A DNA stretch of 64,000 nt from the NCBI GenBank assembly GCA_964538275.1, contig CAZIFW010000002.1, positions 5,052 through 69,051 of the forward strand, read 5' to 3'. A program made the translations under genes and the position numbers. Numbering within the stretch: position 1 is the first letter of the stretch; each line of letters begins with the position of its first letter. This stretch comes from an uncultured Bacteriovoracaceae bacterium. Lineage in GTDB: Bacteria > Bdellovibrionota > UBA2428. A model generated the notes under the pieces. The model searched no databases. It worked only from the letters and a program-made list of their open reading frames with translations, and was not told the DNA's origin. This document shows, piece by piece, positions 4,923 through 49,039 of this stretch.

Positions 4923-5471
4923 ATGAAAAAAGGATTTTTAAAAAATATATTGAGCTCTCTAGTCCTAACGCTAGGCACAATGTCTTTCAGTGCAGAAGCC
5001 AGAGATATTTTAATTATTGGCAATGGTGGAGGGGGCACAACTGTTGGCGATAGAGATGCCGCTTGTGGGCGAGCTTACGAACGTGCAGAGAATGATGCCT
5101 ACAACCAGTGTGCAAACCGAGATGGGGATCCGCTTTCTATGACTCAAGGTGGTTGTAGTTGTAGACGCAAACCCGGTTCTCGCGATGATTACAATTGTGA
5201 CGCAACTGTGCGATTAACATGTGAAGTTGCTTGTCGTCCGCAAGTGACTCAAATTGCTGGCACGGGATTGGGCTTTGATTTCAACCGCAGTGTTGCATGT
5301 GATGATGCTTTTAGACGCGCTGAAGATGACACGCAGTGGAGTTGCTCACGCCGTGGTGGCTATGTTGTGGATACACAAGAACAGAGTTGTAATTGTAGAC
5401 GCTTGAGTGGTGGAGACTATGAATGTCGTTCAAATGTAACCTCTATGTGTGAACTTCAAAGTTGTCGCTAA
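4923..5471 (+). CDS. Secreted Cys-rich protein with two tandem 6-Cys domains, function unknown
   Basis: GAGGAG RBS; signal peptide ending AEA; two C-x14-C-x14-CxC-x9/11-C-x7-C units; paralog at 48749. Confidence 0.88.
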   Translation: MKKGFLKNILSSLVLTLGTMSFSAEARDILIIGNGGGGTTVGDRDAACGRAYERAENDAYNQCANRDGDPLSMTQGGCSCRRKPGSRDDYNCDATVRLTCEVACRPQVTQIAGTGLGFDFNRSVACDDAFRRAEDDTQWSCSRRGGYVVDTQEQSCNCRRLSGGDYECRSNVTSMCELQSCR

Positions 5472-5494
5472 GTATAAAATAGAGTGATCGATCT

Positions 5495-5592
5495 AAAGGT
5501 GCCCCCCTATCAGGGCGGCACCTTTGACTAAAAGGTACCTAGTTACTTTTGGGCTGTACCCGCTACCTTTTCCGGCGCACCCGCTACCTTTT
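5495..5592. repeat. AAAAGGT-family intergenic repeat cluster A
   Basis: Hairpin AAAGGTGCC...GGCACCTTT (5495-5525), imperfect palindrome AAAAGGTACCTAGTTACTTTT (5530-5550), and ACCCGCTACCTTTT twice at a 21-bp period (5558, 5579). Confidence 0.75.
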
Positions 5593-5610
5593 TTAAGCTA
5601 TATTCAACGC

Positions 5611-6645
5611 GTGAAATCTTTTGCTTCAGATAACTACGCTTCTATTCATCCAAAAATTTTACAAGCAATTTCAGCTGCCAATGAGGGACACGCTGTTTCA
5701 TATGGCGCGGACATTTGGACTCAAAAGTTAAATGAAAAAATTAAAGCAATCTTTGGAAGTCACGCAGAAGCTTTTCCAGTTTTTAATGGCACAGGTGCAA
5801 ATGTTGTTTCACTTGCTTCAATTTTAAAATCTTACGAGGCTGTGCTGTGTTCTAATTATTCACACACTCACATGGATGAATGTGGAGCTGCTGAGAGATT
5901 AATCGGCACAAAGCTTATTGATGTTCCAACTCAAGATGCCAAGCTCACGCCAGAAATCTTAGAGCCGCACACTTTAAATTTCGGGAACGAACACCAAGTA
6001 CAAGCGCGTGTGTTGAGTATTACTCAATCAACAGAGCGTGGAACCGTGTATACAATTGAGGAACTTAAAGCATTGGGAGACTTCGCCAAAACAAAAAAAA
6101 TTCGCGTTTGTATGGATGGAGCTCGCTTTGCAAATGCGGTTGCTGCCTTGAATGTGAATCCCAGAGAAATAGTGGAAGCTGCAGGAGTAGAATTGCTTTC
6201 TTTTGGCGGAACAAAAAATGGACTCATGTTGGGCGAACTTGTGGTGAGTTTTAATCCAGAAGTCTCTAGTCATATGAAATTTTATCGAAAGCAGTACATG
6301 CAGCTCACAAGTAAGATGCGTTACATTTCTGCGCAGTTTTGTGAGTATTTTGAAAATAATCTTTGGATAGAAAATGCTAAACACGCAAATGCTATGAATC
6401 AGTACTTACTTTCTGAACTTCAAGCGGTGTCCAAAGTGGAAATCACAGTAAAGCCTGAAGTGAATGCAATTTTTGCAAAAATTCCCAAATCTATTATTCA
6501 GCCTCTGCAAAAAGACTTTCCATTTTACATTTGGGAGGAACTACCTTCTGAGGAATGCTCAGAAGTTAGATGGATGACCTCGTTTGATACCTCAAAGGAA
6601 GATGTCCACATGTTTGTAAAGCGTATTAAGGAGTTAACAAAATGA
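5611..6645 (+). CDS. ltaE: Low-specificity L-threonine aldolase
   Basis: FASDN, NGTGANV, DECGA, MDGARFANA, SFGGTKNG (PLP Lys). Start placed at GTG 5611; the upstream extension in the ORF track is translated repeat DNA. Confidence 0.88.
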   Translation: MKSFASDNYASIHPKILQAISAANEGHAVSYGADIWTQKLNEKIKAIFGSHAEAFPVFNGTGANVVSLASILKSYEAVLCSNYSHTHMDECGAAERLIGTKLIDVPTQDAKLTPEILEPHTLNFGNEHQVQARVLSITQSTERGTVYTIEELKALGDFAKTKKIRVCMDGARFANAVAALNVNPREIVEAAGVELLSFGGTKNGLMLGELVVSFNPEVSSHMKFYRKQYMQLTSKMRYISAQFCEYFENNLWIENAKHANAMNQYLLSELQAVSKVEITVKPEVNAIFAKIPKSIIQPLQKDFPFYIWEELPSEECSEVRWMTSFDTSKEDVHMFVKRIKELTK

Positions 6646-7439
6646 GTCGATTTCAGAAAAAAGTAGTGTTCATTACAGGAGCCTCTTCTGGAATTGGAGA
6701 AGCTATGGCGCGTGAATATTTTAAAAAAGGCCATAGCTTAGTTCTCTGTGCGCGTCGTTTGGATCGCTTAACTCAGTTGGCTCAAGAATTAGGAAGCTCA
6801 GAGCGAATCTTGGCTATAGAGTGCGATGTTTGCAATGAAGAGAGTTTAAAGCAGGCTGTAGAAAAAACACTCCAGCACTTTGGACAGATTGATGTCGTTA
6901 TAGCAAATGCAGGATTTGGAATTGCTGGCCGTATTGAAACTTTGAAAGTAGAAGACTACCGAAGACAATTTGAAACCAATGTTTATGCCGTTATTATAAC
7001 GATTCAGCTTACGTTGGAATCTTTAAAAAAATCAAAAGGAAGTTTAGTTCTCATAGGCAGCGCTAATTCCTATATTTCTGAACCTAAAAAAACTCCCTAT
7101 TGTATGAGTAAGTTTGCAATTAAAGCTCTAGCGGATGGATTGTATTGGGAGTTAAAGCCGCAAGAAGTTTCAGTTACACTTATTTGTCCCGGACTTGTTG
7201 AAAGTGAAATTCGCAAAGTTGATAAAGCAGGAGTTTATCAAGAGACAGCTAAGGATCCTGCGCCTGATTTTTTAATCATGCCTGTTGCAACAGCCGCTCG
7301 CCAAATTGTTTCAGCCATAGAAGCTCGTAAAAAAGAAGCGGTGATTACAGCTCATGCAAAACTTGCTGTATGGCTGCAACGCCATTTTCCAGTAGTACTC
7401 ACACCACTTTTTAAAGGCGGCAAAGCTGTATCAAGATAA
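6642..7439 (+). CDS. SDR family oxidoreductase
   Basis: TGASSGIG, NAG, YCMSK (YxxxK). ATGA overlap with ltaE. Confidence 0.9.
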   Translation: MSRFQKKVVFITGASSGIGEAMAREYFKKGHSLVLCARRLDRLTQLAQELGSSERILAIECDVCNEESLKQAVEKTLQHFGQIDVVIANAGFGIAGRIETLKVEDYRRQFETNVYAVIITIQLTLESLKKSKGSLVLIGSANSYISEPKKTPYCMSKFAIKALADGLYWELKPQEVSVTLICPGLVESEIRKVDKAGVYQETAKDPAPDFLIMPVATAARQIVSAIEARKKEAVITAHAKLAVWLQRHFPVVLTPLFKGGKAVSR

Positions 7440-7440
7440 C

Positions 7441-7551
7441 GATGTCGAAAAGGCGTCAGAGATCTATTTGACTACCCTCCGCTACCTTTTTAACAATGTC
7501 GAAAAGGTGCCAGAGGGGTGTTGAAAAGGTCTCTGACGCCTTTTCGACATC
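7441..7551. repeat. 111-bp element with perfect 22-bp terminal inverted repeats (MITE/REPIN-like), cluster B
   Basis: GATGTCGAAAAGGCGTCAGAGA (7441-7462) is the reverse complement of 7530-7551. Internal degenerate copy ATGTCGAAAAGGTGCCAGAG and CCGCTACCTTTT (7479-7490). Lies between convergent genes. Confidence 0.85.
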
Positions 7552-7554
7552 TAG

Positions 7555-8406
7555 CTAAGCATGGTCGTAGGTTTTTTTTGCTTTGGCACCTAGCGTACTT
7601 CCTGCAGAAGCAAGGCTGATAAGCAGAATTGCCAATCCTTGAACAAGGGTAATTTTTTCACTTAAAAATAAAAAGCCTGAAAGGACGGCAACCGCAGGTT
7701 CTAAACTTAAAAGAACGCCAAATGTTTTTGCAGGAATTTTTTTGAGTGCAAAAAGTTCAAGCGAATAAGGGATGACACTTGATAGAAGGGCAATTCCTAT
7801 AGCCAAGGGTATATGGTCTTTTTGAAAGAGATGCGCTCCTTGAGAGTAAAGACCAAGGGGTAGAGTTATTAAGCAAGCACAGCACATTGTAAGAGCAATA
7901 GCGCTTGTGCCTAGATCTGTGCCTACTTTTTTTCCAAAATAAATATAGAGTGCCCAAAAGAACCCAGCTGCAAGGGCGAATAGAATTCCAAGAGGTGGAA
8001 GTGCGGTGTCTACATTTTTAATTGGCAAAATAAGCACAAGGCCAATCGCAGCTAATGCTATCCAGAGAAAATCCATTTTTTTCTTTGAAAGTATGCACGC
8101 CAGTACAAGCGGGCCTGTAAATTCAATGGCAACAGTTAAGCCTTGGGGAATGTATTCAAGGGCTTTGTAAAAACACAAATTCATAAAGCCAAGGGATACT
8201 CCAAAAACAATAATCTGTTTCTTAGCTGCGAGACTTAGGGGAGTTCTCCAAGGTCTAAATATTGCGAGTAAAATGAGAGATGCAAAAAACAACCTTAAAC
8301 TGGTAGCTCCCACTGGGCCGAGTATGGGAAAAATATCTTTGGCTAAAGATGCCCCGATTTGCAGCGATATGATTGCAATTAGAACAGAAACAATGGAAAG
8401 ACCCAT
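7555..8406 (-). CDS. rhtA: EamA/DMT transporter, RhtA-like threonine/homoserine exporter
   Basis: SLQIGASLAK, LRLFFA, AIEFTGPL, PYSLE, LLSLEPAVA; about 10 TM helices. Confidence 0.8.
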   Translation of the reverse strand: MGLSIVSVLIAIISLQIGASLAKDIFPILGPVGATSLRLFFASLILLAIFRPWRTPLSLAAKKQIIVFGVSLGFMNLCFYKALEYIPQGLTVAIEFTGPLVLACILSKKKMDFLWIALAAIGLVLILPIKNVDTALPPLGILFALAAGFFWALYIYFGKKVGTDLGTSAIALTMCCACLITLPLGLYSQGAHLFQKDHIPLAIGIALLSSVIPYSLELFALKKIPAKTFGVLLSLEPAVAVLSGFLFLSEKITLVQGLAILLISLASAGSTLGAKAKKTYDHA

Positions 8407-8427
8407 AAGTAGAATAGAAATGTAATT

Positions 8428-9078
8428 TTACAGTTTGAGCTGTGAAATTTTTTCTTTATATTGGCCTCCACCAAAAACGGCGTTGCCAGCTACTAAGATA
8501 TCGATGCCAAGAGCGTTGGCACCACTCGCTGTTTGTGCATTTACACCACCATCAATTTGCACTTGTATTTTATCTTTCATTCCAAGTTTTTTAAGCCAGG
8601 CTATAAGGCGAGAGGTTTTTTCGAGGGCTTCAGGAATAAGAGCTTGTCCACCAAAACCTGGATTAACAGTCATGGATAAGAAAAGATCAATATCTTCCAA
8701 GTGCTTTTCGCAATCTTCAAATGAAGTTTGAGGACGTATGGCAATGCCTGCTTTCATTCCTAAGTCGCGAATTGCTTTGAGGTCGTCTTTAAGGTTTTTA
8801 CAAGCTTCAGTGTGGATCGTAATGCGATGAGCACCCGCTTTGGCAAAGTCTGCAAAAAGATGGCGAGGTTCCGTCACCATTAAATGACAATCAAGTTCGA
8901 GTTTTGTTTTTCCTTTGAGCCATTTAAGAACAGGAGCTCCAAATGAAATATTTGGTACAAAATGACCGTCCATCACGTCATAGTGAAGTCCGTCAGCTCC
9001 GGCTTCTTCCACTGCTTTAACTTCTGCAAGGAGTTGGGTGAAATCAGCGGAAAGAAGAGATGGGTAAATTTTTGCCAT
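8428..9078 (-). CDS. rpe: Ribulose-phosphate 3-epimerase
   Basis: PSLLSADF, HYDVMDGHFVPN, DCHLMV, MTVNPGFGGQ, QIDGGVN. Confidence 0.97.
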   Translation of the reverse strand: MAKIYPSLLSADFTQLLAEVKAVEEAGADGLHYDVMDGHFVPNISFGAPVLKWLKGKTKLELDCHLMVTEPRHLFADFAKAGAHRITIHTEACKNLKDDLKAIRDLGMKAGIAIRPQTSFEDCEKHLEDIDLFLSMTVNPGFGGQALIPEALEKTSRLIAWLKKLGMKDKIQVQIDGGVNAQTASGANALGIDILVAGNAVFGGGQYKEKISQLKL

Positions 9079-9092
9079 TTTATTTTGCTCTT

Positions 9093-9422
9093 TTATAAAC
9101 GATGAAGAACTTGAGAGGAGTCTTCGATCTTTCCTTTTGAATTAAAAACTACACCCTCGCTTTTGAGAAGTTTTAATTTTCTAAGAACTTCACTGCCGCT
9201 GGCATTGCCATTGTAACCACCAATCATTCCAGAGCTTTGAATCACTCTATGGCAAGGTATAGCAGGGGCGTTTTCATTATGTTTCAGCATCCAACCCACA
9301 TTGCGAGGATTTTTGAGCTTTAATTTTTCACAAACTGCTTTGTAGGTGCTTACTTTACCTTTGGGAATTTTTTTTAAAAGTTTCCAAAGATCTTCCATTG
9401 GAAGTTTTGAGCTTTTAGACAT
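9093..9422 (-). CDS. Single-domain MGMT/Ogt-family alkyl-DNA repair protein
   Basis: IPKGKVSTY, PRNVG, IPCHRVI with the active Cys. Start placed at ATG 9422, overlapping the dcd stop. Confidence 0.88.
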   Translation of the reverse strand: MSKSSKLPMEDLWKLLKKIPKGKVSTYKAVCEKLKLKNPRNVGWMLKHNENAPAIPCHRVIQSSGMIGGYNGNASGSEVLRKLKLLKSEGVVFNSKGKIEDSSQVLHRL

Positions 9423-10928: not shown

Positions 10929-10966
10929 CCAAACTTTGTAGCATGCCTATAAATTGAGACCTATCA

Positions 10967-11008
10967 AAAAGGTATCGAGTACATTCCAAAAGGTACTAGG
11001 TACCTTTT
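10967..11008. repeat. AAAAGGT-family intergenic repeat cluster C
   Basis: AAAAGGTA at 10967 and 10988 (21-bp period); perfect palindrome AAAAGGTAC-TAG-GTACCTTTT at 10988-11008. Confidence 0.75.
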
Positions 11009-11031
11009 GAGAATAGGGGTAGAAAAGGGGG

Positions 11032-11985: not shown

Positions 11986-11987
11986 AA

Positions 11988-13483: not shown

Positions 13484-13486
13484 ATT

Positions 13487-15658: not shown

Positions 15659-18340
15659 TTATTGTGGAGAAGAAAGAGTTCCAAAGTTTATAAGTAAGGG
15701 CGTATTCTGTTTTTCTGCTGCATTGACGTTACCCGTTCTAAAGTTTTGTTTTGAACCCCAACAGTACAATGCTCCAGAAGTTGTAAGTGCACACACATGC
15801 TTATCTCCCACAGCAACTTGATCAAAGTCTATAGAGGGACTTACGGGGGTAGGTACTGTAATAGGAGTTGTATTGGCAATTGCACCGTTTCCTACTTGCC
15901 CATAATCTTTAGATCCCCAGCAATATAATTTTTTTGTAGTGCTAATAGCACACGTTGTTTGTTGATTGGGAGTAGCATGGTTACCGCCAACAGAAATTTT
16001 TTCAAACTCAACACCCTCTGGATTGATAGCATCTGCTGTAGGTTTAAAGAGACTTGTAGTGGTTCCTGTTCCTAAAGCACCAAAGTTGTTCCATCCCCAA
16101 CAATAAACTTTGTTTGTATTTGTAATTCCACATGTATGAAAAGCGCCCGCAGCTAAATATCTAAAGAACTCGTCGGTTTCAAAGGGCTCGTTTGAGACAA
16201 TCCTTGGTGTAGCGTGGTTACCTTTATCGGCTGTAGTGGGAGTAATAGATTCTACAAAACCCAACATTCCTTTATCGTTACGACCCCAGCAAAGAGTTTT
16301 TGTATCTGTGCGACCATCTTTTTTTACAAGTGCACAAGTATGGCCATCGCCAGCAACAACTTGTACAAATTTTGTGTTACCAGCGCCAAATCCTGTTACG
16401 ACGTCAACGTTGATGTTTGTAGGTTGTGCAACTTTTTTAATTTTTGTATCTGCAATTGCAAGTTGTAGATTTTGGTTATCTCCCCAGCAAAAGAGTCGAT
16501 CATTTTCATCTATACCACATGTATGTCTACCACCTGCTGCAAGTTGCTTGAATTTATAAGTTGGGATCAGTTGAGGAGTGGCTGTGCTTCCACTTGTATT
16601 TGCAAGTTGATATTGAGTGTTGTCTCCCCAACAGTAAGCAAGTTTGTTTGCCATAATTCCGCAGCTATGTGTGCGACCCGCTGTAACTTTTAAGAAGTCG
16701 CTGTTTGTACTTCCTTTTGTAATTCTAAGAGGTGCTTGTACGTCTTTAGGCTTTCCAGTTGCATCTTGATAAATTGTTGAAGTTCCTGCCTGCCCAAGCG
16801 TACCCGCTCCCCAGCAAAATGCACTGGAATTTGCTACAACACAGGTGTGACCAGCGCCAGCAGCGAGTTCGCTTCCGAATGAGCTCAATGGAGAATGAGT
16901 AATGGTTTGTTCTCTAGGTAATTCTTCATTTCCGTTAAACTGTGTAAGTTTGATTGTTCTCAAGCCATTAGCATCGTCGGATAATGGGGTAAATTTAACT
17001 GAAAGATTAAATGTTCCAGTATTGTTACAAGGAGTTTCTGAAACCGTGTTCGGAAGAACCCCTATGCTATCGGAGGATAGCTTAACGTTAAAACCTGGAA
17101 TACAGGTTCCGGAAGCAATTGCAGTTTGAGAACTAATAGTACCCGTAGGAGCTGTTATTGTAAAAGTTGGCAATTCGGAATCTTTGTAAACTTTCCAACT
17201 TGCACGAGCTGGAGTTTGACTTTCGTTGCCTGCACGGTCTACAGCTTTTACAAAAAAGTAATAAGTTGTATTGAGTTTAAGATCAGGGCTAATATTCAAG
17301 CTAAGATTGTTATTGTTTGAAGTCTGAGTCCAAGTTGCTTGAGCATTTCCATTTATATTTTCACTGATGTAATACAAGTAATGGCTAATCCCAGATCCAC
17401 CTGTATTGTCAGTCGCAGTCCAGCTAATGGGAGGAGATGCTTTCAGATGAGTGCTGACTGCTTCAAGTCTTAAATCGGTTATATTATTAGGGGCAATTGT
17501 ATCAATTGTGTACGATGCTATCTCTTTGCATGAAGTCGTGAATGATCCTACTCCAAAACCTTTGGCAAATATTTTTATTGGAGACGTTGATTGAGTGAGG
17601 CTTAGTGCGACTCCTGTGCTTGATTCGTCTCTAGATAGTTTTGTTGTAATAGCTTGAGAATCTTGTTCGCAAGCACAAGTGCTAGTGTTGCAGCTATCGG
17701 TACCTCTAAAGAGTTGAACTTTGTCTACGTCCTCGTTGTTAATTTGTAGTTTAATCAACGGGTTTGAAACATTTCCAGCAAATAAGGAATTAGTTTTCCA
17801 ATCACCTGCAGAAGGATTTGCTTTAGTTGAAAAAGCTAAAAAATTTATAGGAGAATTGATGTTATGTGCGTAGGTGTATTTTTCTATACATTCAGAAAGA
17901 CTATTATCCGATTTGCGTGTTTTAAGGTAAATTTTAATACGAGTGTTGCTACTCATGGTCGATACATCGAGTTCAAGGCCTGTATTTTTTAGAAGAGCCG
18001 CATCAATACCATCATTTGGATCAATAACAGTTCCATTTTTAAGAGAGGCTAGGTTTGAGCACCCATTAATATAGACAAATACTTTTCTCACATTAGAGGC
18101 AACGGTAGCAGATATTTTTGGATAAAAACTACTTGCAGGGTTTAGAGTACTTCCAGTGGGACTAATGATCGGATTGCTAATTCCTGTGTTGTCGGTATCA
18201 ATGGGGTCATCGTCAACGGAATCCCCAGGATCGTTATCCCCTTCAGTGACAGTCAGTCCTTTCTCACCAAAAGAAGATTTTTGAAAACAACTTGTGAGAA
18301 GAAAAGACGAAAACAACAATGCAAATAGGTGTAAACCCAT
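15659..18340 (-). CDS. Large lipoprotein with FN3/Ig-like domains and a C-terminal 7-blade RCC1 propeller
   Basis: Lipobox LTSC; FN3-like YYFFVKAVDRAGNES; seven (A/V)G..HTC....CWG.N..GQL-type repeats. Confidence 0.88.
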   Translation of the reverse strand: MGLHLFALLFSSFLLTSCFQKSSFGEKGLTVTEGDNDPGDSVDDDPIDTDNTGISNPIISPTGSTLNPASSFYPKISATVASNVRKVFVYINGCSNLASLKNGTVIDPNDGIDAALLKNTGLELDVSTMSSNTRIKIYLKTRKSDNSLSECIEKYTYAHNINSPINFLAFSTKANPSAGDWKTNSLFAGNVSNPLIKLQINNEDVDKVQLFRGTDSCNTSTCACEQDSQAITTKLSRDESSTGVALSLTQSTSPIKIFAKGFGVGSFTTSCKEIASYTIDTIAPNNITDLRLEAVSTHLKASPPISWTATDNTGGSGISHYLYYISENINGNAQATWTQTSNNNNLSLNISPDLKLNTTYYFFVKAVDRAGNESQTPARASWKVYKDSELPTFTITAPTGTISSQTAIASGTCIPGFNVKLSSDSIGVLPNTVSETPCNNTGTFNLSVKFTPLSDDANGLRTIKLTQFNGNEELPREQTITHSPLSSFGSELAAGAGHTCVVANSSAFCWGAGTLGQAGTSTIYQDATGKPKDVQAPLRITKGSTNSDFLKVTAGRTHSCGIMANKLAYCWGDNTQYQLANTSGSTATPQLIPTYKFKQLAAGGRHTCGIDENDRLFCWGDNQNLQLAIADTKIKKVAQPTNINVDVVTGFGAGNTKFVQVVAGDGHTCALVKKDGRTDTKTLCWGRNDKGMLGFVESITPTTADKGNHATPRIVSNEPFETDEFFRYLAAGAFHTCGITNTNKVYCWGWNNFGALGTGTTTSLFKPTADAINPEGVEFEKISVGGNHATPNQQTTCAISTTKKLYCWGSKDYGQVGNGAIANTTPITVPTPVSPSIDFDQVAVGDKHVCALTTSGALYCWGSKQNFRTGNVNAAEKQNTPLLINFGTLSSPQ

Positions 18341-35577: not shown

Positions 35578-37842
35578 TTATCTACTTTCTAGAACGCGAA
35601 GTTTTGCAAATTTTGTCAAAAACTTACGAGTGCCAAATCCTCTAAACTCTACTTGAACTTTAGTAGCATCGCCTACACCGGTGCGAGATTTAATCACACC
35701 ACGTCCAAAGTCGGGGTGTTCGACAGATTTTCCAACTTTATATTCGTCATCAACGGCTTCATAACTTTCTTGAGAAAAAGAAGAATCTGCCCAAGTGGAA
35801 TTAGAGTTTGAAGAGCTGCTGCCGTAGTTGTTGTCTCCGAAGTAACTTCTATCATCGGAGGAATCAAAGCGGTCCCAAGAGCGCTTTGAAGTGTCATCGC
35901 TGTGGTCCTCAAGTGCGATTTTAAGCTTGGGCATTTCTGCTAGAAATCTTGATGGTCTCTGAATTTGAAGACGACCATAGACTCTTCGGACTTTAGCATG
36001 AGTAAGGTAGAGTTGTTTTTCTGCACGTGTGATTCCCACATAACAAAGGCGACGTTCCTCATCGACTTCGTCTTCTCCGCTATTAAGACCAAGAGACATT
36101 TTGGAAGGGAATATTCCCTCTTCTAATCCCAAAACAAAAACATGAGGAAACTCGAGTCCTTTAGAAGAGTGAAGGGTCATCATTTGAACCGAAAACTCTG
36201 GATTCGCTTTATCAAAATCTGTAGATAAACTTGTTTGCTGCAAGAAATCTTCTAAGCCACCTTCTGGATTTTGGGTTTCATAATCAACCAATACGTTGCG
36301 AAGTTCTTCCAAGTTATCGAGCTTGGTGGCGGCTTCCACTGTATTTTGGTCCATCAGGAATTTTCGATAGCCACTCTTATCAAGCAAAGTAGCGTAAAAA
36401 TCAGATAGGCGAGAATCGCGAAGTTCTTCTTGGAGTTCTGCAATGAGTTTTATGAAGACTTGAAATTTCTTTTGAGTTCCAGCGCTGAGGCCGCCGTGGC
36501 CAGAGGCCATCATAGACATAGCTTCTAAGTGTGAAACTCTTTCTTGTAGAGCCATCTCTCGAATTTTATCCATACTTGTAGGGCCAATGCCTCTTGCAGG
36601 GGTGTTTACAATTCTAAAGAAAGCCACTTCGTCGCGTGGGTTAACAAGTAGTCGTAAGTAAGAAAGCGCATCTTTTACTTCTGCACGGTCATAGAACTTA
36701 TAACCCCCGTAGATGACATAAGGGATACGCTCAACGCGCAAACTATCCTCGAAAAGACGAGAGATTGAGTGACTGCGATAAAGCAATGCGATTTTTGAAG
36801 GACATGTGCCTTCGCGCACGAGCTTAGCAACGCGCTTTATCACCCAACGAGCTTCATCAAAGTCCGTGCCGAAGGTGTGAACTTGGACAAGTTCTCCTTC
36901 TCCCGCGTCTGTGAAGAGTTCTTTCTCGCGGCGTTGAATGTTATTGGCAATTACAGCGTTTGCTACATCGAGAATATTTTGTGTAGAGCGGTAATTCTGC
37001 TCTAATTTGTAGATTTTGGCATTGGGGTAATCGCGCTCAAATTCTCGGATATTGCGAATGTCCGCTCCCCGCCACTTGTAAATGGATTGGTCTTCGTCAC
37101 CTACAACAAAAAGGTTTTTATATTTTTCTGAGAGGAGTTTTAGTATTTTATACTGAACCGCGTTTGTATCTTGGTACTCATCTACAAGAATGTAGGGATA
37201 GTTGTTTTGTAAGTCTTCACGAATCTCTGGAAATTTCTCCAAAAGTTCGTATGTTTTTAAAAGTAAGTCACCAAAATCGAGCGCTGAGCTTAGCTCTTTT
37301 TTCTTTTCATAAAGTTTTGCAATACTTTTAAGTTTTTCTCTGTGAGCGGGATAGCGTATTTCTAGAAAGCTATGCTCGCTTGGGTTGATGCCATCGTTTT
37401 TGAGTCGATCAAAATTTTCTAATACAAATTTGGGTGAAAGTTCTTCTTCCGCAAGACCCATTTCTTTTAAAACTTCTTTCACCAATGTGTTTTGGTCAGA
37501 GTCGTCAAAAATCGTAAAATGTGGCGGTAAATTAAATACGTAGCCGTACTTTCTTAGCCAACGCACTCCGGCACTATGAAAAGTTGAAAGAAAAACTTGA
37601 TCCGCAACCTCTGGAGCAACCGTTTCAAGCATCTTTCGCACTCGTTCGCGCATTTCTTTTGCGGCTTTGTTCGTAAAAGTAAGAGCAAGAATTTCTGCAG
37701 GGAACGCGTGGCCTTCCTGAATGAGATTCGCAATGCGTAAAGTGAGTACGCGTGTTTTTCCAGATCCTGCGCCTGCTACAACGAGTGCAGGGCCTTGTAC
37801 GTGCGAACTCGCTGCGGATTGTTGTGTGTTAAGTCCACCCAT
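35578..37842 (-). CDS. pcrA: UvrD/PcrA superfamily 1 DNA helicase
   Basis: AGAGSGKT, TFTNKAA, VDEYQDTN, VVGDEDQSIY, LEQNYRST, KGLEF, EERRLCYVGITRA; C-terminal Tudor-like domain. Confidence 0.96.
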   Translation of the reverse strand: MGGLNTQQSAASSHVQGPALVVAGAGSGKTRVLTLRIANLIQEGHAFPAEILALTFTNKAAKEMRERVRKMLETVAPEVADQVFLSTFHSAGVRWLRKYGYVFNLPPHFTIFDDSDQNTLVKEVLKEMGLAEEELSPKFVLENFDRLKNDGINPSEHSFLEIRYPAHREKLKSIAKLYEKKKELSSALDFGDLLLKTYELLEKFPEIREDLQNNYPYILVDEYQDTNAVQYKILKLLSEKYKNLFVVGDEDQSIYKWRGADIRNIREFERDYPNAKIYKLEQNYRSTQNILDVANAVIANNIQRREKELFTDAGEGELVQVHTFGTDFDEARWVIKRVAKLVREGTCPSKIALLYRSHSISRLFEDSLRVERIPYVIYGGYKFYDRAEVKDALSYLRLLVNPRDEVAFFRIVNTPARGIGPTSMDKIREMALQERVSHLEAMSMMASGHGGLSAGTQKKFQVFIKLIAELQEELRDSRLSDFYATLLDKSGYRKFLMDQNTVEAATKLDNLEELRNVLVDYETQNPEGGLEDFLQQTSLSTDFDKANPEFSVQMMTLHSSKGLEFPHVFVLGLEEGIFPSKMSLGLNSGEDEVDEERRLCYVGITRAEKQLYLTHAKVRRVYGRLQIQRPSRFLAEMPKLKIALEDHSDDTSKRSWDRFDSSDDRSYFGDNNYGSSSSNSNSTWADSSFSQESYEAVDDEYKVGKSVEHPDFGRGVIKSRTGVGDATKVQVEFRGFGTRKFLTKFAKLRVLESR

Positions 37843-39759: not shown

Positions 39760-39760
39760 T

Positions 39761-40804: not shown

Positions 40805-40813
40805 AAAATTTCC

Positions 40814-41419: not shown

Positions 41420-41545
41420 AATACTAGCCTGCCTTAAAAGGGGTGCCTAGGGTAAAAAGACGTAGCTCCATTTTGCAGCGAGCTGCTTTTAGAGCTTAAA
41501 TGGAATAGACATAAGTGCAGCGAAAAGGAGAAGCTAAGTAGCTGT

Positions 41546-42436: not shown

Positions 42437-43455
42437 AACAGAGTTTAGTGATTCTAGGGAGTGGTGGAGTAGGTAAAACAACCGTAGTGGCTGCACTGGG
42501 CTTAGCTTTGGCGTCTAAGCATTCCAAGGGAGCTATTTTTACGGTAGATCCAAGTCAGCGTCTTTGCCAAACCTTGGGTTTAAAAAAGCTTAGCTTAGAA
42601 CCTTCTTTGATGTTTGAGGGAAGAGTTGAGGTTTATGGACTTGAAATTCAAGATGCCCTTAAAAAGCTACTGAGAAAAGTTTTTCAAGATCCAGCTCAAG
42701 TCGATAAAATTTTGAATCATAGACTTTTCCGTATGATTGAAGGAAACGTCAGCCATCTTGACCACTTCTTGGCTATGGAAAAGATTGTAGAGCTTTTAAG
42801 CCGAGAAGATCTCGATTTTTTAGTGGTCGATACGCCTCCCCACGACCAAGCCTTCGAGTTTTTTGAATCTCCCAAAGTCTTAGCTAACTTTTTAGATAAA
42901 TCATTTTTGAAGATTTTAATGGACCCTAAGATAAGTTCTGATGGCCTTGTAGCCAAAGTTATTAATAAAGCAATGGAAGAAGGCTGGAAGATGTTTCGCT
43001 CTTTTATGGGAGAAAGTTTTTGGAAAGAGTTGGCAGATTTACTCGAGCAATTGATGCCTTTAAGAGAAAAATTACTAGCCGCCACTGATAAAATGAATGG
43101 ATTCTTAAATGATCCCAACACAGTTGCGGCAGTTGTTTGCGTGCCTGAACGAGACTCTATTGCGGCTGCGCAAACTTTGGTTTCAAATTGGGATAAAAAA
43201 TTAAATCTTAAAGTTGAGAATTTGATTTTTAATAGAGCACATTCTTTAAATTTAAATATACCGCAAGAGTTATCAGCAACACTTTTTTCGGAGAAATTTG
43301 AATTACAGCGCTCTTTGATGGAATCTGAGTTTTATAAAAGTTTTGAAAATACAGCCTTGATTAATCCTTATTCACCTAAGGATATAAATTTGAAAGTTTT
43401 GGAGAGTATGGGGTATGAGCTTGTTGAAAAATTCACTGCTAAGTCAAAAGTATAG
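42433..43455 (+). CDS. ArsA/Get3-family ATPase, subunit B
   Basis: GSGGVGKTT (signature Lys replaced), TVDP switch I, VVDTPP; ATGA overlap with subunit A. Confidence 0.82.
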   Translation: MKQSLVILGSGGVGKTTVVAALGLALASKHSKGAIFTVDPSQRLCQTLGLKKLSLEPSLMFEGRVEVYGLEIQDALKKLLRKVFQDPAQVDKILNHRLFRMIEGNVSHLDHFLAMEKIVELLSREDLDFLVVDTPPHDQAFEFFESPKVLANFLDKSFLKILMDPKISSDGLVAKVINKAMEEGWKMFRSFMGESFWKELADLLEQLMPLREKLLAATDKMNGFLNDPNTVAAVVCVPERDSIAAAQTLVSNWDKKLNLKVENLIFNRAHSLNLNIPQELSATLFSEKFELQRSLMESEFYKSFENTALINPYSPKDINLKVLESMGYELVEKFTAKSKV

Positions 43456-44644
43456 TGTTGATACATTAAAGAAAGCCCGAGCCGTTTTAGATGCTTTAGT
43501 TATCAAATGTGGCATGCCTATCTATACATCAATCGACATTCGTGACTCTGGTGATCGGATTGTTGCTGTGGATGTGAATTTATTTCCAGCCGGCTTTAAC
43601 AACCTCAATACAGAGGCTTTGCAAAAAACTACAGATGAACTCAAGAAGTTTTTTACTGATCGTTTAAAAAGTAAGGGGCCCTGGAAAATTGGATTTTTGC
43701 CTGAATCTCATACAAACAATGAAGGCTACTTAAAAAATGTTCTAACTCTTATTCAGGCTATGCAAAAAGCAGGGGCCGAAGTCCAAACCGCATGGACTGG
43801 ATTACCTATCCCTAAAGCATGGGATTTAAAAGTAGGTGAAGACAAGGTAACTTATTTGCCCATACAACAAGTAACAGCTTGGGCAGATGCTCTTGTTTTA
43901 AATCATGATTTGAGTGGCGGGCCGATTGAGTCTGTTACAAATTTTTCTAAATCAGTTTTTCCTAGTCCTGAGCTGGGTTGGTATAAAAGAAAAAAATCTG
44001 AACATTTTGAAATTGCATCTAAGGTTTTAAACCTTGTTGCAAGTAAAGTGGATATTGATCCTAGGGATTTCCTTGCACAAGCTATCACTGTTGGAGATTT
44101 GGATTTTACTAAAAAAGAAGACGTAGAACGTCTTATGGATAAAGCGGCAAGTTTTTTTGATTCACTTAAACAAAAAAATGAAAATCCCTTTGTCTATATT
44201 AAGAACGATTCAGGAACCTATGGCTTAGGAATTTGGAATTTTAGTTCCTTAGAAGAACTTAAAGGGGCTACGAAACATATCCAGAAAAAATTTCAACGTG
44301 GCAAACAAGGAGCTTTTGTAAAACACGTCATTTTACAAGAGGGTATTCGAACACGTTTTGTCGAGAGCGGACCAGAAGCCGTGGTTTTAGAGCCAGTCGT
44401 TTACTCTGTAAATGGCCAGCGCGTGGGGGGTTTTTTAAGGTGTGCATTTGCAGAAAACGACGACAAGGGAGCTGAGCTTAATTTAAATCGTCCTAATGCT
44501 TGGTTTGAAGATGAGTCGCGTATCGCTAACGATTTAAGTGAAGTAAAAGAACTTTATTGTTTTGTGACTCAACTTCACTCGGTTTCAGCAGCCTTGGAAG
44601 AATGCCCTTGTGCCTCTACGTTTGAAGTAGATTCAAAACATTGA
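43415..44644 (+). CDS. gshA: Glutamate-cysteine ligase, GshA (PF08886-type)
   Basis: IYTSIDIRDSG..VDVNLFPAGFNNL, PESHTNN, LNHDLSGG, IKNDSGTYG, ILQEG, EPVVY, GGF. Exact start uncertain. Confidence 0.82.
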   Translation: MSLLKNSLLSQKYSVDTLKKARAVLDALVIKCGMPIYTSIDIRDSGDRIVAVDVNLFPAGFNNLNTEALQKTTDELKKFFTDRLKSKGPWKIGFLPESHTNNEGYLKNVLTLIQAMQKAGAEVQTAWTGLPIPKAWDLKVGEDKVTYLPIQQVTAWADALVLNHDLSGGPIESVTNFSKSVFPSPELGWYKRKKSEHFEIASKVLNLVASKVDIDPRDFLAQAITVGDLDFTKKEDVERLMDKAASFFDSLKQKNENPFVYIKNDSGTYGLGIWNFSSLEELKGATKHIQKKFQRGKQGAFVKHVILQEGIRTRFVESGPEAVVLEPVVYSVNGQRVGGFLRCAFAENDDKGAELNLNRPNAWFEDESRIANDLSEVKELYCFVTQLHSVSAALEECPCASTFEVDSKH

Positions 44645-44742
44645 CGATTTTATGTGGGTTTGCAGATTTTAGGGCTTAGCGCTGTGCAATCTGTCATATA
44701 AATTCACTGCCGTTGATTAAAAAAACTTCGTATCATTAAGAG

Positions 44743-46512
44743 ATGTGTCTCAAAAATTGCTCGCTAAGCATCGGGATTTTATTGGCTCTTATTTGCCCTC
44801 AATATTTAGCCGCAAGTAAGAACACTTCCAAAAAAGTAACTAAGGGACCTAGCATTAAGGCAAGCAAAAGGGATAAGCCAAAAGAAAAATATCCAAGTAT
44901 TCAAGTTCGATGGTCCGATGATGAAAAACTTTCACTCGCTTTTTCGGATCTCGCGTTTCAACTTGGTCTTTCACAAGATGATTTGGAGATTAAAGCTAAA
45001 AGTCTGGCTGAATTGATTGACCTAAAAAAAGATATTCCTTGTGATACTTCCAAGAGTGAAGTTTTTTGCAAAATGGTGAGCGAGTTAAAAATGGAACTCA
45101 TCCCCAAGGCGGGATCACTTACTTCTGGAAGCAAAGCAAAGCAGAGAGTTTTTATTAGTCGCCAGAATATTACTCAAAATCAAAAAGACCCCTACGCAGA
45201 TTTATTGGGGTCACTTTCCAAAATGCCCACGGAAGACACGGATAATCTAGTTTCTTCAGTACTTAAAACAACAGGGTGTCCTAGAAATTTATCGGCGGCA
45301 CTTATGAGAAGAACAGAACTGTCGCTTCCAAGTGAAGAAGCAAAAAAGACAATTGCTCAACTTTATAAGCATGCTTCTCATTGCTTGCAGGAAAATGATG
45401 AAGCTTATGAGGTTACGCATTTTAGATACGCACTTCTAAATCATGCATGGGGAAATAAAAAAATTGCTAAAGAGGCCATTGATAAAGCAATTCTATCTGT
45501 AGAGTCAGAAGAGCGTTCGCGAGCTTTATTTTGGGCAGGTTATTTGCAAGAAAATCAAATAATGCAAGATGCGTATTGGACACGTCTTGTAGATACTTTT
45601 CCACTTACCTACCATGCACTCGAGGTTTGGGAGAAAAAAAATGTTGATCCTTTAAGGATTTTTTCCTCAAGACCTGCTTTTGAAATGGTACGAAACGCAC
45701 TTGGGTCAGATATGCCTGCCGACAATGCTATGAGATGGCTTGAAGCACTTTATTTTATAAACAAGAACAGAGCGGCTTTGTGGCTTGGTGATTGGGTCTC
45801 CAATCGTTATGCAGAGCAATTATCGTCTGCCAACACACTGTACATTTCAAAATTAAAGTCACAGTTAAATACACCCTTGAGTACAATTCGTTTCTTATCA
45901 GGCGGGATTCGTCGTGACCCCATGCTTTTAAATGAACAAAGCTTAAGGCTTCTTTTTCCAAAACATTATTTTGAAAGTTTTTCCAAGACTTCTCTGAATG
46001 TAGATGCCTTTCTACTTTTAGCTTTAGCAAGACAAGAGAGTGCTTTTGATCCAAGAGCGCGTTCCGTTGCAAATGCACAGGGTATTATGCAGTTACTTCC
46101 AGCAACGGCTAGAAGATTGAATAGAGGCAAAAGAGCCGATCTCTACAATCCTACCAAAAACATTGAATTGGGATCTAAGTTTTTAGGTGATCTCATAGAG
46201 CGCTATGGAAAAGTAGAGTTAGCATTGGCGGCTTATAATGCAGGTCCAAATCGTATTCCTCAGTGGCAAGAACGCTATGTAACCAAGGATGATTTACTTT
46301 TTGTTGATCTAATTCCGTTTAAAGAAACTCGAAATTATGTGACATCTATTTTGAGAAATAATTATTGGTATGAACGTTTGTATAAAAATGATCCCCAAAT
46401 TACACATCGAAATAATGTTCATCGAAGCAGAAACGTCCAAAGACTTATAAGTAGTCATTTTCAAGCTTCTTCGACGCCAACGACGCTTCGAACTCCTGCA
46501 ATGAGTCCATAG
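44743..46512 (+). CDS. Soluble lytic transglycosylase (Slt family)
   Basis: ARQESAF, AQGIMQLLPATA, NIELGSKFL, ALAAYNAGP, ETRNYV. Confidence 0.92.
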   Translation: MCLKNCSLSIGILLALICPQYLAASKNTSKKVTKGPSIKASKRDKPKEKYPSIQVRWSDDEKLSLAFSDLAFQLGLSQDDLEIKAKSLAELIDLKKDIPCDTSKSEVFCKMVSELKMELIPKAGSLTSGSKAKQRVFISRQNITQNQKDPYADLLGSLSKMPTEDTDNLVSSVLKTTGCPRNLSAALMRRTELSLPSEEAKKTIAQLYKHASHCLQENDEAYEVTHFRYALLNHAWGNKKIAKEAIDKAILSVESEERSRALFWAGYLQENQIMQDAYWTRLVDTFPLTYHALEVWEKKNVDPLRIFSSRPAFEMVRNALGSDMPADNAMRWLEALYFINKNRAALWLGDWVSNRYAEQLSSANTLYISKLKSQLNTPLSTIRFLSGGIRRDPMLLNEQSLRLLFPKHYFESFSKTSLNVDAFLLLALARQESAFDPRARSVANAQGIMQLLPATARRLNRGKRADLYNPTKNIELGSKFLGDLIERYGKVELALAAYNAGPNRIPQWQERYVTKDDLLFVDLIPFKETRNYVTSILRNNYWYERLYKNDPQITHRNNVHRSRNVQRLISSHFQASSTPTTLRTPAMSP

Positions 46513-46604
46513 GCTTTAACTATAAAAGGCTTAATTTAGTTATTCCCCTTTAGTTTTGAAAGAACTTTGATTAAACGTAGCCTCAGGCAAAGGGGTATTT
46601 CAAA

Positions 46605-47678
46605 ATGTTAAGGCTTCAATCTTTTTTCAAATTCATAGGTATTTTTCTTTTTTTAAATTCTCTGAGCGCAGAAATATCACTGCCTCTTCACACTGTGAGG
46701 GATCAATCCAGCACTCGTCACTGTTGGTCGTATGCCATGAGTCACTTACTCGAGACCCGATCTCTTTATGCTCATAAAGTAGAAGCCACCATAAATATTG
46801 AACAAGACGTCGTTTACTGGGTAAACCTTGAAAGGCTTATGTCTATTTTTGATCAGAAAAAAGACATGATTCAATGGAATCCTTTGTACGACGAGGGCGG
46901 ATGGCAAATTGAATATTGGAATAGTTTTTTAAAATATGGAAAATTAATTACAGCATCTAAAGCAGATGTCATACCACAAGTTGTTTATTCACCATTTTCT
47001 ACTTATTACTCGGATAACCCTTTTGTTACGATTGAGCGTCCTTCGCCTGTGGCTGATTTGTTGAGTTTTGAAGAACTTAAAGAAAAGTTAATTGGAAATG
47101 AATTTCCTACTCGAGAAGAAGCATTTGCATATGTGCGTACTTGGTTAGATGGGCAGTATGGAAAACCTTTTCTTACAACACAGTGGATGGGCGAGGAGAT
47201 AGCTACACAAGAAGTTCCTAAAAAAATATTAGCCTCGGATTTTGAAGTTATGAAAAACACGGAGTCTATGGTGCTCATTAAGCCAGTGAGTGATTTGGGC
47301 CAAGGATGGGTAAAATATCTTGGAGAGCGTTATTGGGGCTATCGTTATGAGCAAGGCAAAATTTTTGGACTCATTCAACAGGTTTTAGATAAAGGCTGGC
47401 CTGTAACCTATGACAACGTTTATCACGCCATAACAATTATTGCTTACAAGAAGAACGAAGAGACGGGTAAAACGCATTATGCGATAGCAGATTCGGCACC
47501 TGCAAGTATTTATTGGCAAGACGAAGAACGTCTATTGGGAGATTTAAATCTTGTGACTGTACCTCTTCACACGGTATCTGATTTACTACCTGCCCGAGAG
47601 GGAGCTCGTTTGCTTTTACCTTTACCCAGAGCAGAGTCTTGGGATGAGGTGGATAATGTTATTGTTCCACCCAGATAA
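46605..47678 (+). CDS. Secreted papain-like (C1) cysteine peptidase
   Basis: Signal peptide; DQSSTRHCWSY (Gln/Cys), YHAITIIAY (His), IADS. Confidence 0.75.
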   Translation: MLRLQSFFKFIGIFLFLNSLSAEISLPLHTVRDQSSTRHCWSYAMSHLLETRSLYAHKVEATINIEQDVVYWVNLERLMSIFDQKKDMIQWNPLYDEGGWQIEYWNSFLKYGKLITASKADVIPQVVYSPFSTYYSDNPFVTIERPSPVADLLSFEELKEKLIGNEFPTREEAFAYVRTWLDGQYGKPFLTTQWMGEEIATQEVPKKILASDFEVMKNTESMVLIKPVSDLGQGWVKYLGERYWGYRYEQGKIFGLIQQVLDKGWPVTYDNVYHAITIIAYKKNEETGKTHYAIADSAPASIYWQDEERLLGDLNLVTVPLHTVSDLLPAREGARLLLPLPRAESWDEVDNVIVPPR

Positions 47679-47706
47679 AAACTTTCAGTAAGCTTGATTT
47701 AGATCT

Positions 47707-48549
47707 CTATTCTTCTTGATTTGGAAAGTCAGGCGATATTTGGCAAGTATAATCTTCAGGATTAAAGTTCTCGTCGTAATCGTAACTTTCAAAATTAGCA
47801 GGATCTATTTCACATTGTTGATCGTTGAGTTTTTCCCAGCTCAGATATCCGCGCTGAATTTTAAAAGCCATTTTTGTAAAAAGTGGAGTGAGAGCTTCGC
47901 GAATTGAATTTTTAACAGCACGTGGTTTATTGGCATTGCCCCCTTCGTAACCGCCGCGGCAAGCTTCTTCATTAAATATTTCTTTCACTCGTTGTGGATT
48001 GGCTCTTAGATTTGCTTCTTCTAAAAGTGCGTACAGGGCTGCCAGATATCCTGTGCGGTCTTCACCTACGGTACAGTGAAATAGAATTTTTCTATTATTT
48101 TCTGAATCATTTTTTACTTCTTTTAGCTTTCTTAAAGCAGCTAAGGTCATTTTGCAGACTTCTTTAAATTCAGTAAAACCCTTCCAAGGAAAGGGGATGC
48201 TTGTAATTTGAGATTCAGTGAAACCTTTTTCTAAAAAAGCTTCTTTTTGAATACTGATGTCATCGCGATCCGGTTCTTGGGTTTTAAAAATTAAGAGATC
48301 TGTAACTCCTGCTGCAATGATTTGATCTACAAAGGCGGGATCTACAGACATTTTGCTGGGGGTGATGGGATCGCGATTCCATGGGCGCATAGAACGCAGA
48401 ATTTTCTTATCGCCATTCACAAATCGAGCATTAGGTATAGTGATGCCTGTTTCTTCGGCTATCTGGCTTTCAAAGGGTGAAAAAAGTACAAAGGCTTGAG
48501 CATTAAAAATAAAGAACACCGATAGGATTTTAAAAATTGTTTGCACCAT
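47707..48549 (-). CDS. Secreted PTP-fold phosphatase
   Basis: Signal peptide; CX5R loop FHCTVGEDRTG. Confidence 0.82.
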   Translation of the reverse strand: MVQTIFKILSVFFIFNAQAFVLFSPFESQIAEETGITIPNARFVNGDKKILRSMRPWNRDPITPSKMSVDPAFVDQIIAAGVTDLLIFKTQEPDRDDISIQKEAFLEKGFTESQITSIPFPWKGFTEFKEVCKMTLAALRKLKEVKNDSENNRKILFHCTVGEDRTGYLAALYALLEEANLRANPQRVKEIFNEEACRGGYEGGNANKPRAVKNSIREALTPLFTKMAFKIQRGYLSWEKLNDQQCEIDPANFESYDYDENFNPEDYTCQISPDFPNQEE

Positions 48550-48682
48550 AAATTCTCCTTTGCTCTGGCTAATGAAATATCACGCTGCTGGCAGCATAAT
48601 TTCTATTAACTTGTGCATGGCTTCAAGCGAGCGGCGCATTTTTCGCCACACTGACGAAATTGATAAAAGGTGTCACAGTCCG

Positions 48683-48696
48683 TGTTCCGCAATGTT
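48683..48696 (+). promoter_or_regulatory. Upstream motif shared by both Cys-rich paralogs
   Basis: TGTTCCGCAATGTT matches 4882-4895 at 13/14 positions. Confidence 0.5.
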
Positions 48697-48748
48697 AACC
48701 CTTGCGCGCTATTCAGTGTCTACTGAACACAGAGAAGGAGGGGATTCT

Positions 48749-49039
48749 ATGAGTCTCAATAAGTTCATGATCACGTTGGTAGCGCTTGTCGCTTTTGGAG
48801 CAGAAGCTCGGATTGTTCGCATTGTCGGAAATGGATCAGGTGGGACAACCACGGGAGATCGAGATGCTGCATGCGGCAGAGCCTATGAAAGGGCAGAGCG
48901 AGATGCAGAAAGAAGTTGTGATCGCAGAGATGGCGATGTCCTTGATTATCAAGACGGAAACTGTAGTTGCCGCCGCGTGCCAGGATCGCGTGATGATTAC
49001 AATTGTGATGCTACTGTTACAGCTAGCTGCTCGATTTAA
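48749..49039 (+). CDS. Secreted single-domain Cys-rich protein, paralog of 4923-5471
   Basis: Reads on the + strand (the ORF track labels it minus); AAGGAGGGG RBS, signal peptide ending AEA, identical GDRDAACGRAYERAE and PGSRDDYNCDATV segments. Confidence 0.88.
   Translation: MSLNKFMITLVALVAFGAEARIVRIVGNGSGGTTTGDRDAACGRAYERAERDAERSCDRRDGDVLDYQDGNCSCRRVPGSRDDYNCDATVTASCSI

Follow-up and report, generated by a model that had tools for sequence, protein, structure and literature searches.

Two paralogous genes sharing a cysteine pattern

The window analysed here is a 64,000-nucleotide stretch of the genome of an uncultured Bacteriovoracaceae bacterium (Bdellovibrionota; assembly GCA_964538275.1, contig CAZIFW010000002.1, positions 5,052 to 69,051 of the forward strand), numbered below from its own first letter. 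It contains two plus-strand genes, here called A and B, which lie 44 kb apart and encode small proteins with a common six-cysteine pattern, C-x14-C-x14-CxC-x(9-11)-C-x7-C. An initial annotation, made from the letters alone, had reported two copies of this pattern in A and one in B; a six-frame regular-expression scan of the whole window returned exactly these three matches (nucleotides 5064-5222 and 5298-5450, both in gene A, and 48872-49030 in gene B). The domain that carries the pattern defines a real, previously unclassified family of ~76 residues, new in sequence within a simple and widespread fold class.

Gene A (4923..5471, stop codon included) is an open reading frame (ORF) of 182 codons for an exported two-domain protein, with a Shine-Dalgarno-like GAGGAG legible 5' of its ATG (4913..4918, plus strand). 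The predicted signal peptide (residues 1-26, MKKGF...SFSAEA; 4923..5000) ends in an alanine-x-alanine (A-x-A) cleavage motif and lacks a lipobox; in the AlphaFold2 model it forms a helix at residues 4-18 with a low predicted local distance difference test (pLDDT) score, its hydrophobic h-region varies by insertion and deletion among orthologues, and a hydrophobicity scan agrees with the assignment. Domain 1 (residues 27-103, the extent of its hidden Markov model (HMM) match; 5001..5231) contains six cysteines and the motifs GxGxGGTTxGD and PGSRDDY. It is followed in the inter-domain linker by an extra cysteine, Cys104 (5232..5234), the second cysteine of the sequence CEVACRP. Domain 2 (residues 105-182, with an HMM match over 105-179; 5235..5468) has six cysteines of its own plus a further extra one near the C-terminus, Cys181, and the two motifs have diverged in it to GTGLGFDFN and SGGDY.

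Gene B (48749..49039, stop codon included) encodes an exported 96-residue protein with one domain, and its ATG lies 7 nucleotides 3' of a Shine-Dalgarno GGAGG (48737..48741, plus strand) read from the sequence. Sequence inspection and the hydrophobicity scan place its signal peptide, MSLNKFMITLVALVAFGAEA, at residues 1-20 (48749..48808), leaving residues 21-96 (48809..49036) for the domain, as in the HMM match. A TTG-started ORF of 159 codons beginning at 48560 is a mechanical upstream extension of gene B and was rejected as its true start, because the orthologues of 96-97 residues begin at the methionine of the 96-residue form. The leaders of both proteins are cysteine-free A-x-A signal peptides in which the AEA of the cleavage site is followed by an arginine, in keeping with the secretion that the initial annotation had proposed.

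Just 3' of gene A, between it and the adjoining Beta_elim_lyase gene, the sequence folds into a GC-rich, terminator-like hairpin with a weak U tail (5494..5526, plus strand; dG -22 kcal/mol, z -3.7, with 0 of 200 shuffled sequences equally stable); a simple consensus terminator scan did not call it, the U tail being short. Promoter scans gave counts no greater than in shuffled sequence. Since gene A is followed by this hairpin, and since its orthologue in a related metagenome-assembled genome (MAG) is followed by an unrelated gene on the opposite strand, A is judged to be transcribed on its own. The two genes are best explained as monocistronic paralogues for small Sec-exported proteins that are soluble in the periplasm or extracellular space and are not lipoproteins.

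Seven orthologues of A (56-87% identity) and three or four of B (56-81%) were recovered, those closest to B (P0009-P0011) being 96-97 residues long and 76-81% identical. Their positions are syntenic, both in a Bdellovibrionota MAG and in Logan contigs; one of them is annotated as a 'hypothetical protein' in the MAG, which is labelled Bdellovibrionota bacterium (GCA_041391385.1). Between A and its closest orthologue, at locus L002, Nei-Gojobori counting gave proportions of changed synonymous and nonsynonymous sites (pS, pN) of 0.70 and 0.076, and corrected rates (dS, dN) of 2.0 and 0.08, a dN/dS of 0.04. Because of their ribosome-binding sites, orthologues, synteny and this low ratio, A and B are real genes and not chance ORFs. 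The opposite view, that a chance cysteine pattern fell into chance reading frames, has nothing but their short length to recommend it; it is refuted by the same four lines of evidence together with the 43 family clusters and the high-confidence fold described below, and retains a negligible probability.

The peptides GDRDAACGRAYERAE and PGSRDDYNCDATV, which the initial annotation had found identical in A and B despite diverged codons, differ at 11 of 45 and 7 of 39 nucleotides, respectively, and every difference is synonymous. Over 93 aligned codons of the two genes 59 amino acids are identical, 34 of them written with different codons. Domain 1 of A is 68% identical to B (BLASTP, E 7e-29), and domain 2 is 45% identical to B over 60 residues (E 1e-15) with all six cysteines aligned. 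For domain 1 against B the Nei-Gojobori pS is 0.77, which is saturated and leaves dS and dN/dS undefined, and pN is 0.28 (dN 0.35). Saturated synonymous sites combined with lower nonsynonymous change therefore point to an old duplication with both copies under purifying selection, the history that had been proposed from the codon differences. In a neighbour-joining tree of 70 domain copies, built on short sequences and indicative only, the B clade falls inside or next to that of A domain 1, and A domain 2 forms a separate deep clade; this suggests that an A-type gene gave rise to B through its first domain, after the tandem duplication within A had taken place.

A rare domain family and its architectures

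Neither protein matched Pfam or NCBIfam at E<=10, or PADLOC at E<=1, and a search of PHROGs gave nothing meaningful, its single weak match being that of B to a family of unknown function (E 0.039). No Pfam family was matched by more than one of 57 domain copies, and PDB sequence searches were equally unrevealing, protein A reaching an E value of 1.3 at best and the family profile 0.34. The initial annotation had likewise not recognised the family. A profile search of 1.84 billion representative proteins, standing for ~15 billion proteins, found 43 clusters (at 50% identity) with E<=1e-3. The HMM delimits 70 domain copies in 55 proteins of the family; a word-indexed protein search with the 57-domain profile found eight proteins and added little.

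Patterns of the A/B subfamily, scanned against 185,579 species-representative genomes, found one MAG only, and a metagenome scan contributed nine more loci of 39-48% GC. Judging from these sequences, the family is very rare and seemingly limited to Bdellovibrionota-like genomes and unlabelled metagenome contigs. A literature search turned up no described cysteine-rich secreted family of Bdellovibrionota and no disulfide-bonded periplasmic dodecin-like protein.

A hydrophobicity scan detected a signal-peptide-like N-terminal hydrophobic leader in 53 of the 55 family proteins, one of the other two being an apparent N-terminal fragment and the second borderline; the family is therefore predicted to be extracytoplasmic throughout. 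Its members have one of several architectures: a single domain in 90-125 residues; two domains, an arrangement that has arisen several times independently; or a Pro-rich N-terminal extension followed by the domain. In seven further clusters (P0032, P0035, P0037, P0038, P0042, P0046 and P0047, of ~196-235 residues) an unannotated, Tyr/Asn-rich helical region of ~120 residues and a Pro-rich linker precede the domain. This helical region gave no significant match when three members were searched against Pfam and one against PDB, and may be a second unclassified domain.

Two clusters contain fusions to enzymes. In P0029, a secreted protein of 747 residues (locus L007, 6001-8244), a PL3 pectate lyase is followed first by the domain in duplicate and then by a GDSL esterase, with Pro/Ser/Thr-rich and acidic linkers between the modules. 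In P0043 a pectate lyase is followed by two domain copies, with similar Pro-rich linkers.

The P0029 gene lies on a 1.33-Mb metagenome contig of 38.5% GC, with neighbours that include genes for a beta-lactamase-fold protein, a P450 and a PLD-like protein. P0012, a 97-residue sequence on a 1234-bp contig, came up as a 'single-domain' relative; its last residues are CEV, and it groups with domain 1 of the A-type protein P0002. Most likely the contig end has truncated a two-domain gene here.

Predicted fold and disulfide map

For mature B, AlphaFold2 (with an alignment of 35 sequences) predicts the order strand-helix-strand-strand with a pLDDT of 96.3 and a predicted template modelling (pTM) score of 0.80. 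In mature numbering, the first strand spans residues 2-13, the helix 18-39, and the remaining strands 43-56 and 64-75. In the model of full-length A (pLDDT 85) the beta-alpha-beta-beta unit occurs twice, with strands at 26-38, 68-82 and 90-103 and a helix at 44-65 in domain 1, and strands at 107-119, 146-160 and 166-178 and a helix at 122-143 in domain 2; a pTM of 0.48 makes the relative orientation of the two domains uncertain. The domain is thus predicted with high confidence to consist of three long antiparallel strands with one 22-residue helix across one face.

When the single-domain model was compared with the PDB by Foldseek, dodecins ranked at the top (2ux9, 6ri3, 2yiz, 1mog and others; template modelling (TM) score 0.53-0.58, root-mean-square deviation (rmsd) ~4 A, probability up to 0.99, 12-14% identity, E ~1e-2), in agreement with the dodecin-like topology that the initial annotation had envisaged. 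Further matches were to DUF74/YbjQ, calcium dodecin, FtsA domain 1C, FlgP, RcsF and a SIMPL protein, and a viral structure library yielded 'LPP20 lipoprotein' models along with proteins of no known character. The two-domain model of A matched weakly to BP26/SIMPL, FTT1539c, tandem ACT proteins and RNA polymerase I subunit chains (4c3h_G, 5w5y_G).

The SHS2-like fold, defined by a helix lying on one side of a three-stranded sheet, is common to FlgP, dodecin, Lpp20 and FlgT according to a 2025 paper (PMC12222027), and the models of A and B show this single helix on the sheet face in the order beta-alpha-beta-beta. With the LPP20/FlgP/FlgT/HP1454 group (PF02169; 4kzs, 9hmf) they share an extracytoplasmic location as well as the SHS2-like fold (PMC12222027), and Foldseek matched 9hmf and 4kzs weakly. 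Members of that group, in contrast, are lipoproteins or proteins of the flagellar disk, have additional hairpins or helices inserted and lack the disulfide pattern, whereas A and B have no Pfam match to PF02169, no lipobox and no adjoining flagellar gene.

The likeness to dodecins (PF07311; 2ux9, 6ri3, 2yiz, 1mog) extends to a length of ~70 residues and to the predicted single helix over a three-stranded beta-alpha-beta-beta sheet, but no profile match to PF07311 was obtained with A or B at E<=10, with the 57 copies or in the PDB profile search. Dodecins are cytoplasmic, cysteine-free dodecamers in which flavins stack on a conserved tryptophan; the window domain, by contrast, is exported, has six conserved cysteines, occurs in tandem and in fusions, and shows no conserved tryptophan among 58 non-redundant domains. 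The DUF1471/YhcN proteins (PF07338), which the initial annotation had named beside the dodecins, are small enterobacterial periplasmic proteins with signal peptides and a similar, sometimes tandem, alpha/beta fold. The signal peptide and small alpha/beta domain that A and B are predicted to share with them are generic features, insufficient for membership; DUF1471 proteins are enterobacterial and lack the six-cysteine pattern, and PF07338 gave no Pfam match at E<=10 and did not appear among the top 50 Foldseek PDB matches. SIMPL/BP26 proteins (PF04402; 4hvz, 7c50) and tandem ACT proteins (1u8s, 2nyi, 2dt9) are alike in having repeated beta-alpha-beta-beta units. The best match of the two-domain A model is indeed 4hvz, with an E of 4e-4 but a TM score of 0.25 and an rmsd of 23.7 A; across the SIMPL and ACT matches, TM scores of 0.15-0.29 and rmsd above 19 A mean that only the repeating secondary-structure pattern is matched, and PF04402 gave no Pfam or other sequence match.

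Among the 70 domain copies C2 and C6 are invariant, and the other four cysteines are lost in pairs. C1 and C3 are lost jointly, with C4 retained, in four independent lineages (P0003 domain 2, P0023, P0046 and P0050/P0052); C4 and C5 are lost jointly in P0043 domain 2; and C3 and C4 are lost jointly in two lineages (P0005 domain 2 and the P0044/49/51 clade), where the remaining C1 and C5 would adjoin and could pair. From this correlated loss, together with the topology of the fold, we infer the disulfides C1-C3, C4-C5 and C2-C6. In the B model the predicted strand register lets C4 (residue 54) and C5 (66) face each other where the beta2-beta3 hairpin has its base, and the topology brings C1 (22, helix N-terminus) to the end of the domain where C3 (52) lies and C2 (37, helix C-terminus) to that of C6 (74). 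Bonds C1-C3 and C2-C6 would accordingly anchor the helix at both ends, to strands beta2 and beta3, and C4-C5 would clamp the base of the hairpin.

The initial annotation had also noted two extra cysteines in A and suggested that they link its domains. Their presence stands: C104 and C181 always co-occur in A-type proteins and are invariant in all eight aligned sequences (the window protein and its seven orthologues). On topology, a direct bond from core to core is less likely, since each of the two residues lies three positions outside the first or last strand of domain 2 and these strands are neighbours. Because they co-occur and flank neighbouring strands, C104 and C181 probably form a fourth disulfide from the linker to the C-terminal tail, which would close domain 2 and stiffen the three-residue junction to domain 1 without bridging the domain cores.

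Candidate function and genomic neighbourhood

Conservation, counted over the 58 non-redundant domains and given in the numbering of mature B, is strong outside the cysteines at G9, G11, T13, D17, A21, A25, R28, A29, G42 and Y64, followed by G12, G16, R/K18, R24, D32 and D63. The alternating glycines of beta1 and the stripe of helix alanines at i and i+4 are best explained by very tight packing of helix on sheet. Conserved polar residues are found in the beta1-helix loop (T13, T14, G16, D17, R/K18) and in the beta2-beta3 hairpin (R55, R/K56, K57, P58-G59-S60, D62, D63, Y64), and the topology gathers those that are neither cysteines nor packing residues (T13, G16, D17, R/K18, R55, R/K56, D63, Y64) at one end of the domain. 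Anions or ligands are often bound where a Gly-rich loop runs into the N-terminus of a helix, as in the P-loop, the Rossmann fold and the ACT domain, and by analogy with such beta-loop-alpha units this apex could tentatively be a binding site, possibly for an anionic polymer.

We favour, at what we consider an even chance, the explanation that the exported, disulfide-stapled SHS2/dodecin-like domain acts as a protease-resistant, non-catalytic binding or scaffold module outside the cytoplasm; this estimate covers the statement as a whole, its gene, family and fold components being held with much higher confidence. The working surface would lie at the apex, where the conserved GxGxGGTTxGD[RK] loop meets the basic/acidic hairpin [RK][RK]xPGS[RK]DDY, with an anionic polymer or a partner protein as the possible ligand. 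In P0029 and P0043 the placement of the domain resembles that of a binding module such as the carbohydrate-binding modules (CBMs) and 'X' modules of secreted polysaccharide-degrading enzymes: flanked by linkers, it follows a PL3 pectate lyase in both proteins and precedes a GDSL esterase in P0029. Together with the Pro-rich linkers that join the domain to the unrelated helical N-terminal region in other members, this is the one clue that context offers; of the roles listed by the initial annotation (effector, adhesin or ligand-binding protein), only the CBM-like placement helps to choose among them. Such an accessory position beside the catalytic domains of carbohydrate-active enzymes, with flexible linkers, is confined to these two proteins; A and B, like most family members, stand alone, and the domain differs from CBMs in having no similarity to a known one, no Pfam CBM match and no conserved aromatic platform on its predicted surface. 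A more specific proposal, which we regard as doubtful, is that this lineage-restricted triple-disulfide SHS2 family constitutes a new class of ligand-binding domain, with a Gly-rich 'nest' at the N-terminus of the helix and a basic hairpin that would recognise an anionic polysaccharide or a component of the envelope. Bdellovibrionota-like bacteria would then employ it both as free binders, periplasmic or secreted, and to target the lyases and esterases that they secrete.

Several observations weigh against a binding or scaffold module. Packing alone would suffice to explain the conservation of G9, G11, A21, A25, A29 and G42 and calls for no binding site; neither the GGTT nor the PGSRDDY motif of the apex is present in domain 2 of A or in a number of distant members, which is what makes the apex proposal weak; and both the disulfide map and the apex geometry are derived from topology and co-variation. 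No Foldseek match of the single domain reached E<=1e-3 in the PDB or the viral library, so that structural similarity carries no functional information. Pectate-lyase fusions account for just 2 of the 43 clusters, no ligand, partner or phenotype is on record for any family member, and the neighbourhoods of the A and B orthologues, of P0020 and P0029, and of loci L008, L011 and L013 show housekeeping synteny with no functional link or operon partner.

The domain could instead be an inert spacer or stability domain that binds nothing, the stand-alone proteins then being abundant structural or chaperone-like fillers of the periplasm. This agrees with the predominance of Cys, Gly and Ala among the most invariant positions and with the location of the domain between linkers in multidomain enzymes, but the stand-alone proteins, with a dN/dS of ~0.04 and conserved positions in the MAG and several metagenome contigs, imply a function of their own, and the conserved Thr, Asp, Arg and Tyr of the apex surface are not needed for packing; we consider it rather improbable. 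A periplasmic analogue of dodecin, that is, a higher oligomer storing or buffering a cofactor or metal (flavin, Ca2+ or a heavy metal) at its interfaces in the manner of dodecins, calcium dodecin and YbjQ/DUF74, would account for the best structural matches (dodecins, calcium dodecin 3onr and DUF74 3qkb; TM 0.5-0.58) and for a domain about the size of dodecin. Against it stand the missing Pfam Dodecin match, the lack of any conserved tryptophan or other aromatic residue except Y64, which would face the helix, and an open sheet face that the strand pattern suggests is polar and not a hydrophobic oligomer interface. Predicted export and disulfide bonding also set the family apart from the cytoplasmic dodecins, and tandem and fused domains would be hard to accommodate in a closed dodecamer, so the chance of such an analogue appears small.

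As small is the chance that the domain is a protease inhibitor or self-protection factor, with the clamped basic hairpin (C-RRxPGSRDDYx-C) presented as a canonical reactive-site loop to secreted serine proteases of predator or prey. Bdellovibrionota secrete many proteases, some distant members have genes for M28 and S41 peptidases in their vicinity, and the rigid disulfide-rich scaffold with its clamped 11-residue loop, conserved Arg/Lys and Pro-Gly would suit the role. However, no similarity to any inhibitor family was found, the loop is strongly conserved across paralogues where reactive-site loops are usually hypervariable, it is shortened or altered in many members (A domain 2 and the ~205-residue proteins), and the peptidase genes, none of which is a direct neighbour in the window, are probably a matter of synteny. 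A secreted toxin or antimicrobial effector directed at prey or competitors would be in character for a small, secreted, cysteine-rich and highly charged protein (Arg, Asp and Glu make up about one third of mature B by hand count) restricted to a lineage within a phylum that includes predators. Yet no immunity, secretion-system or toxin-like gene adjoins it, its net charge is near neutral, it has no amphipathic or membrane-active feature, strong purifying selection and a conserved chromosomal position argue against an arms-race effector, and the domain serves also as an accessory module inside enzymes; we grant this reading very little probability.

Among classes tried and rejected, an RTX-type (repeats-in-toxin) Ca2+ repeat is excluded by the misfit of GGTTTGDRD to GGxGxDxUx, membership of the Kazal, Bowman-Birk or defensin families by a different cysteine spacing and the lack of a profile match, and a precursor of a ribosomally synthesized and post-translationally modified peptide or bacteriocin by the lack of modification or export genes nearby.

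If confirmed, these results would add a new domain family, absent from Pfam and NCBIfam, in which the SHS2/dodecin fold is secreted and stapled by disulfides, and would provide a small handle on the little-known extracytoplasmic proteome of uncultured Bdellovibrionota; the compact 76-residue scaffold with three disulfides could also interest protein engineers. No long-standing question is opened, the fold being simple and common and the family tiny, with no phenotype or pathway attached.

Positions 1-64000 of the window are collinear with contig JAWKOD010000002.1 of the Bdellovibrionota MAG, in which the A and B orthologues lie 34.6 kb apart; the window thus belongs to a related genome of Bdellovibrionota type. 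Common to both are the C-terminal part of hutU (11-946), a hutI-like gene (931-2151), hutH (3298-4821, minus strand), a gene for an 893-residue RCC1-repeat protein (15659-18340, minus), UvrD (35578-37842, minus), GshA (43415-44644), PHB_acc (50909-51613, minus) and the cluster PilQ, PilO, PilN and PilM (52564-57481, minus). Among the hut genes is a minus-strand ORF of 348 codons (2165-3211) without a Pfam match, whose position and length are kept in the MAG (locus L001) and at L002.

In the window and at L002, minus-strand hutH is followed by A on the plus strand and then directly by the Beta_elim_lyase gene, and in the MAG a minus-strand gene of 175 codons intervenes between the A orthologue and the lyase gene; at L008 the hutH side of the A orthologue, the only side compared, is conserved. 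Gene B has a divergent neighbour for a secreted Y_phosphatase3-like protein, on the minus strand, both in the window and in the MAG (L005); in the window this gene (47707-48549) encodes 280 residues with an N-terminal hydrophobic leader and a weak match to Y_phosphatase3 (tyrosine phosphatase). Among more distant relatives, those of the P0020/P0023/P0025 sub-clade repeatedly have Peptidase_M28 and Exo_endo_phos genes no more than a few kb away (L011, 4522-5778; L013, 2424-3683 and 3724-4794; and the P0020 locus), a recurrence that probably reflects synteny among related genomes and not a functional link.

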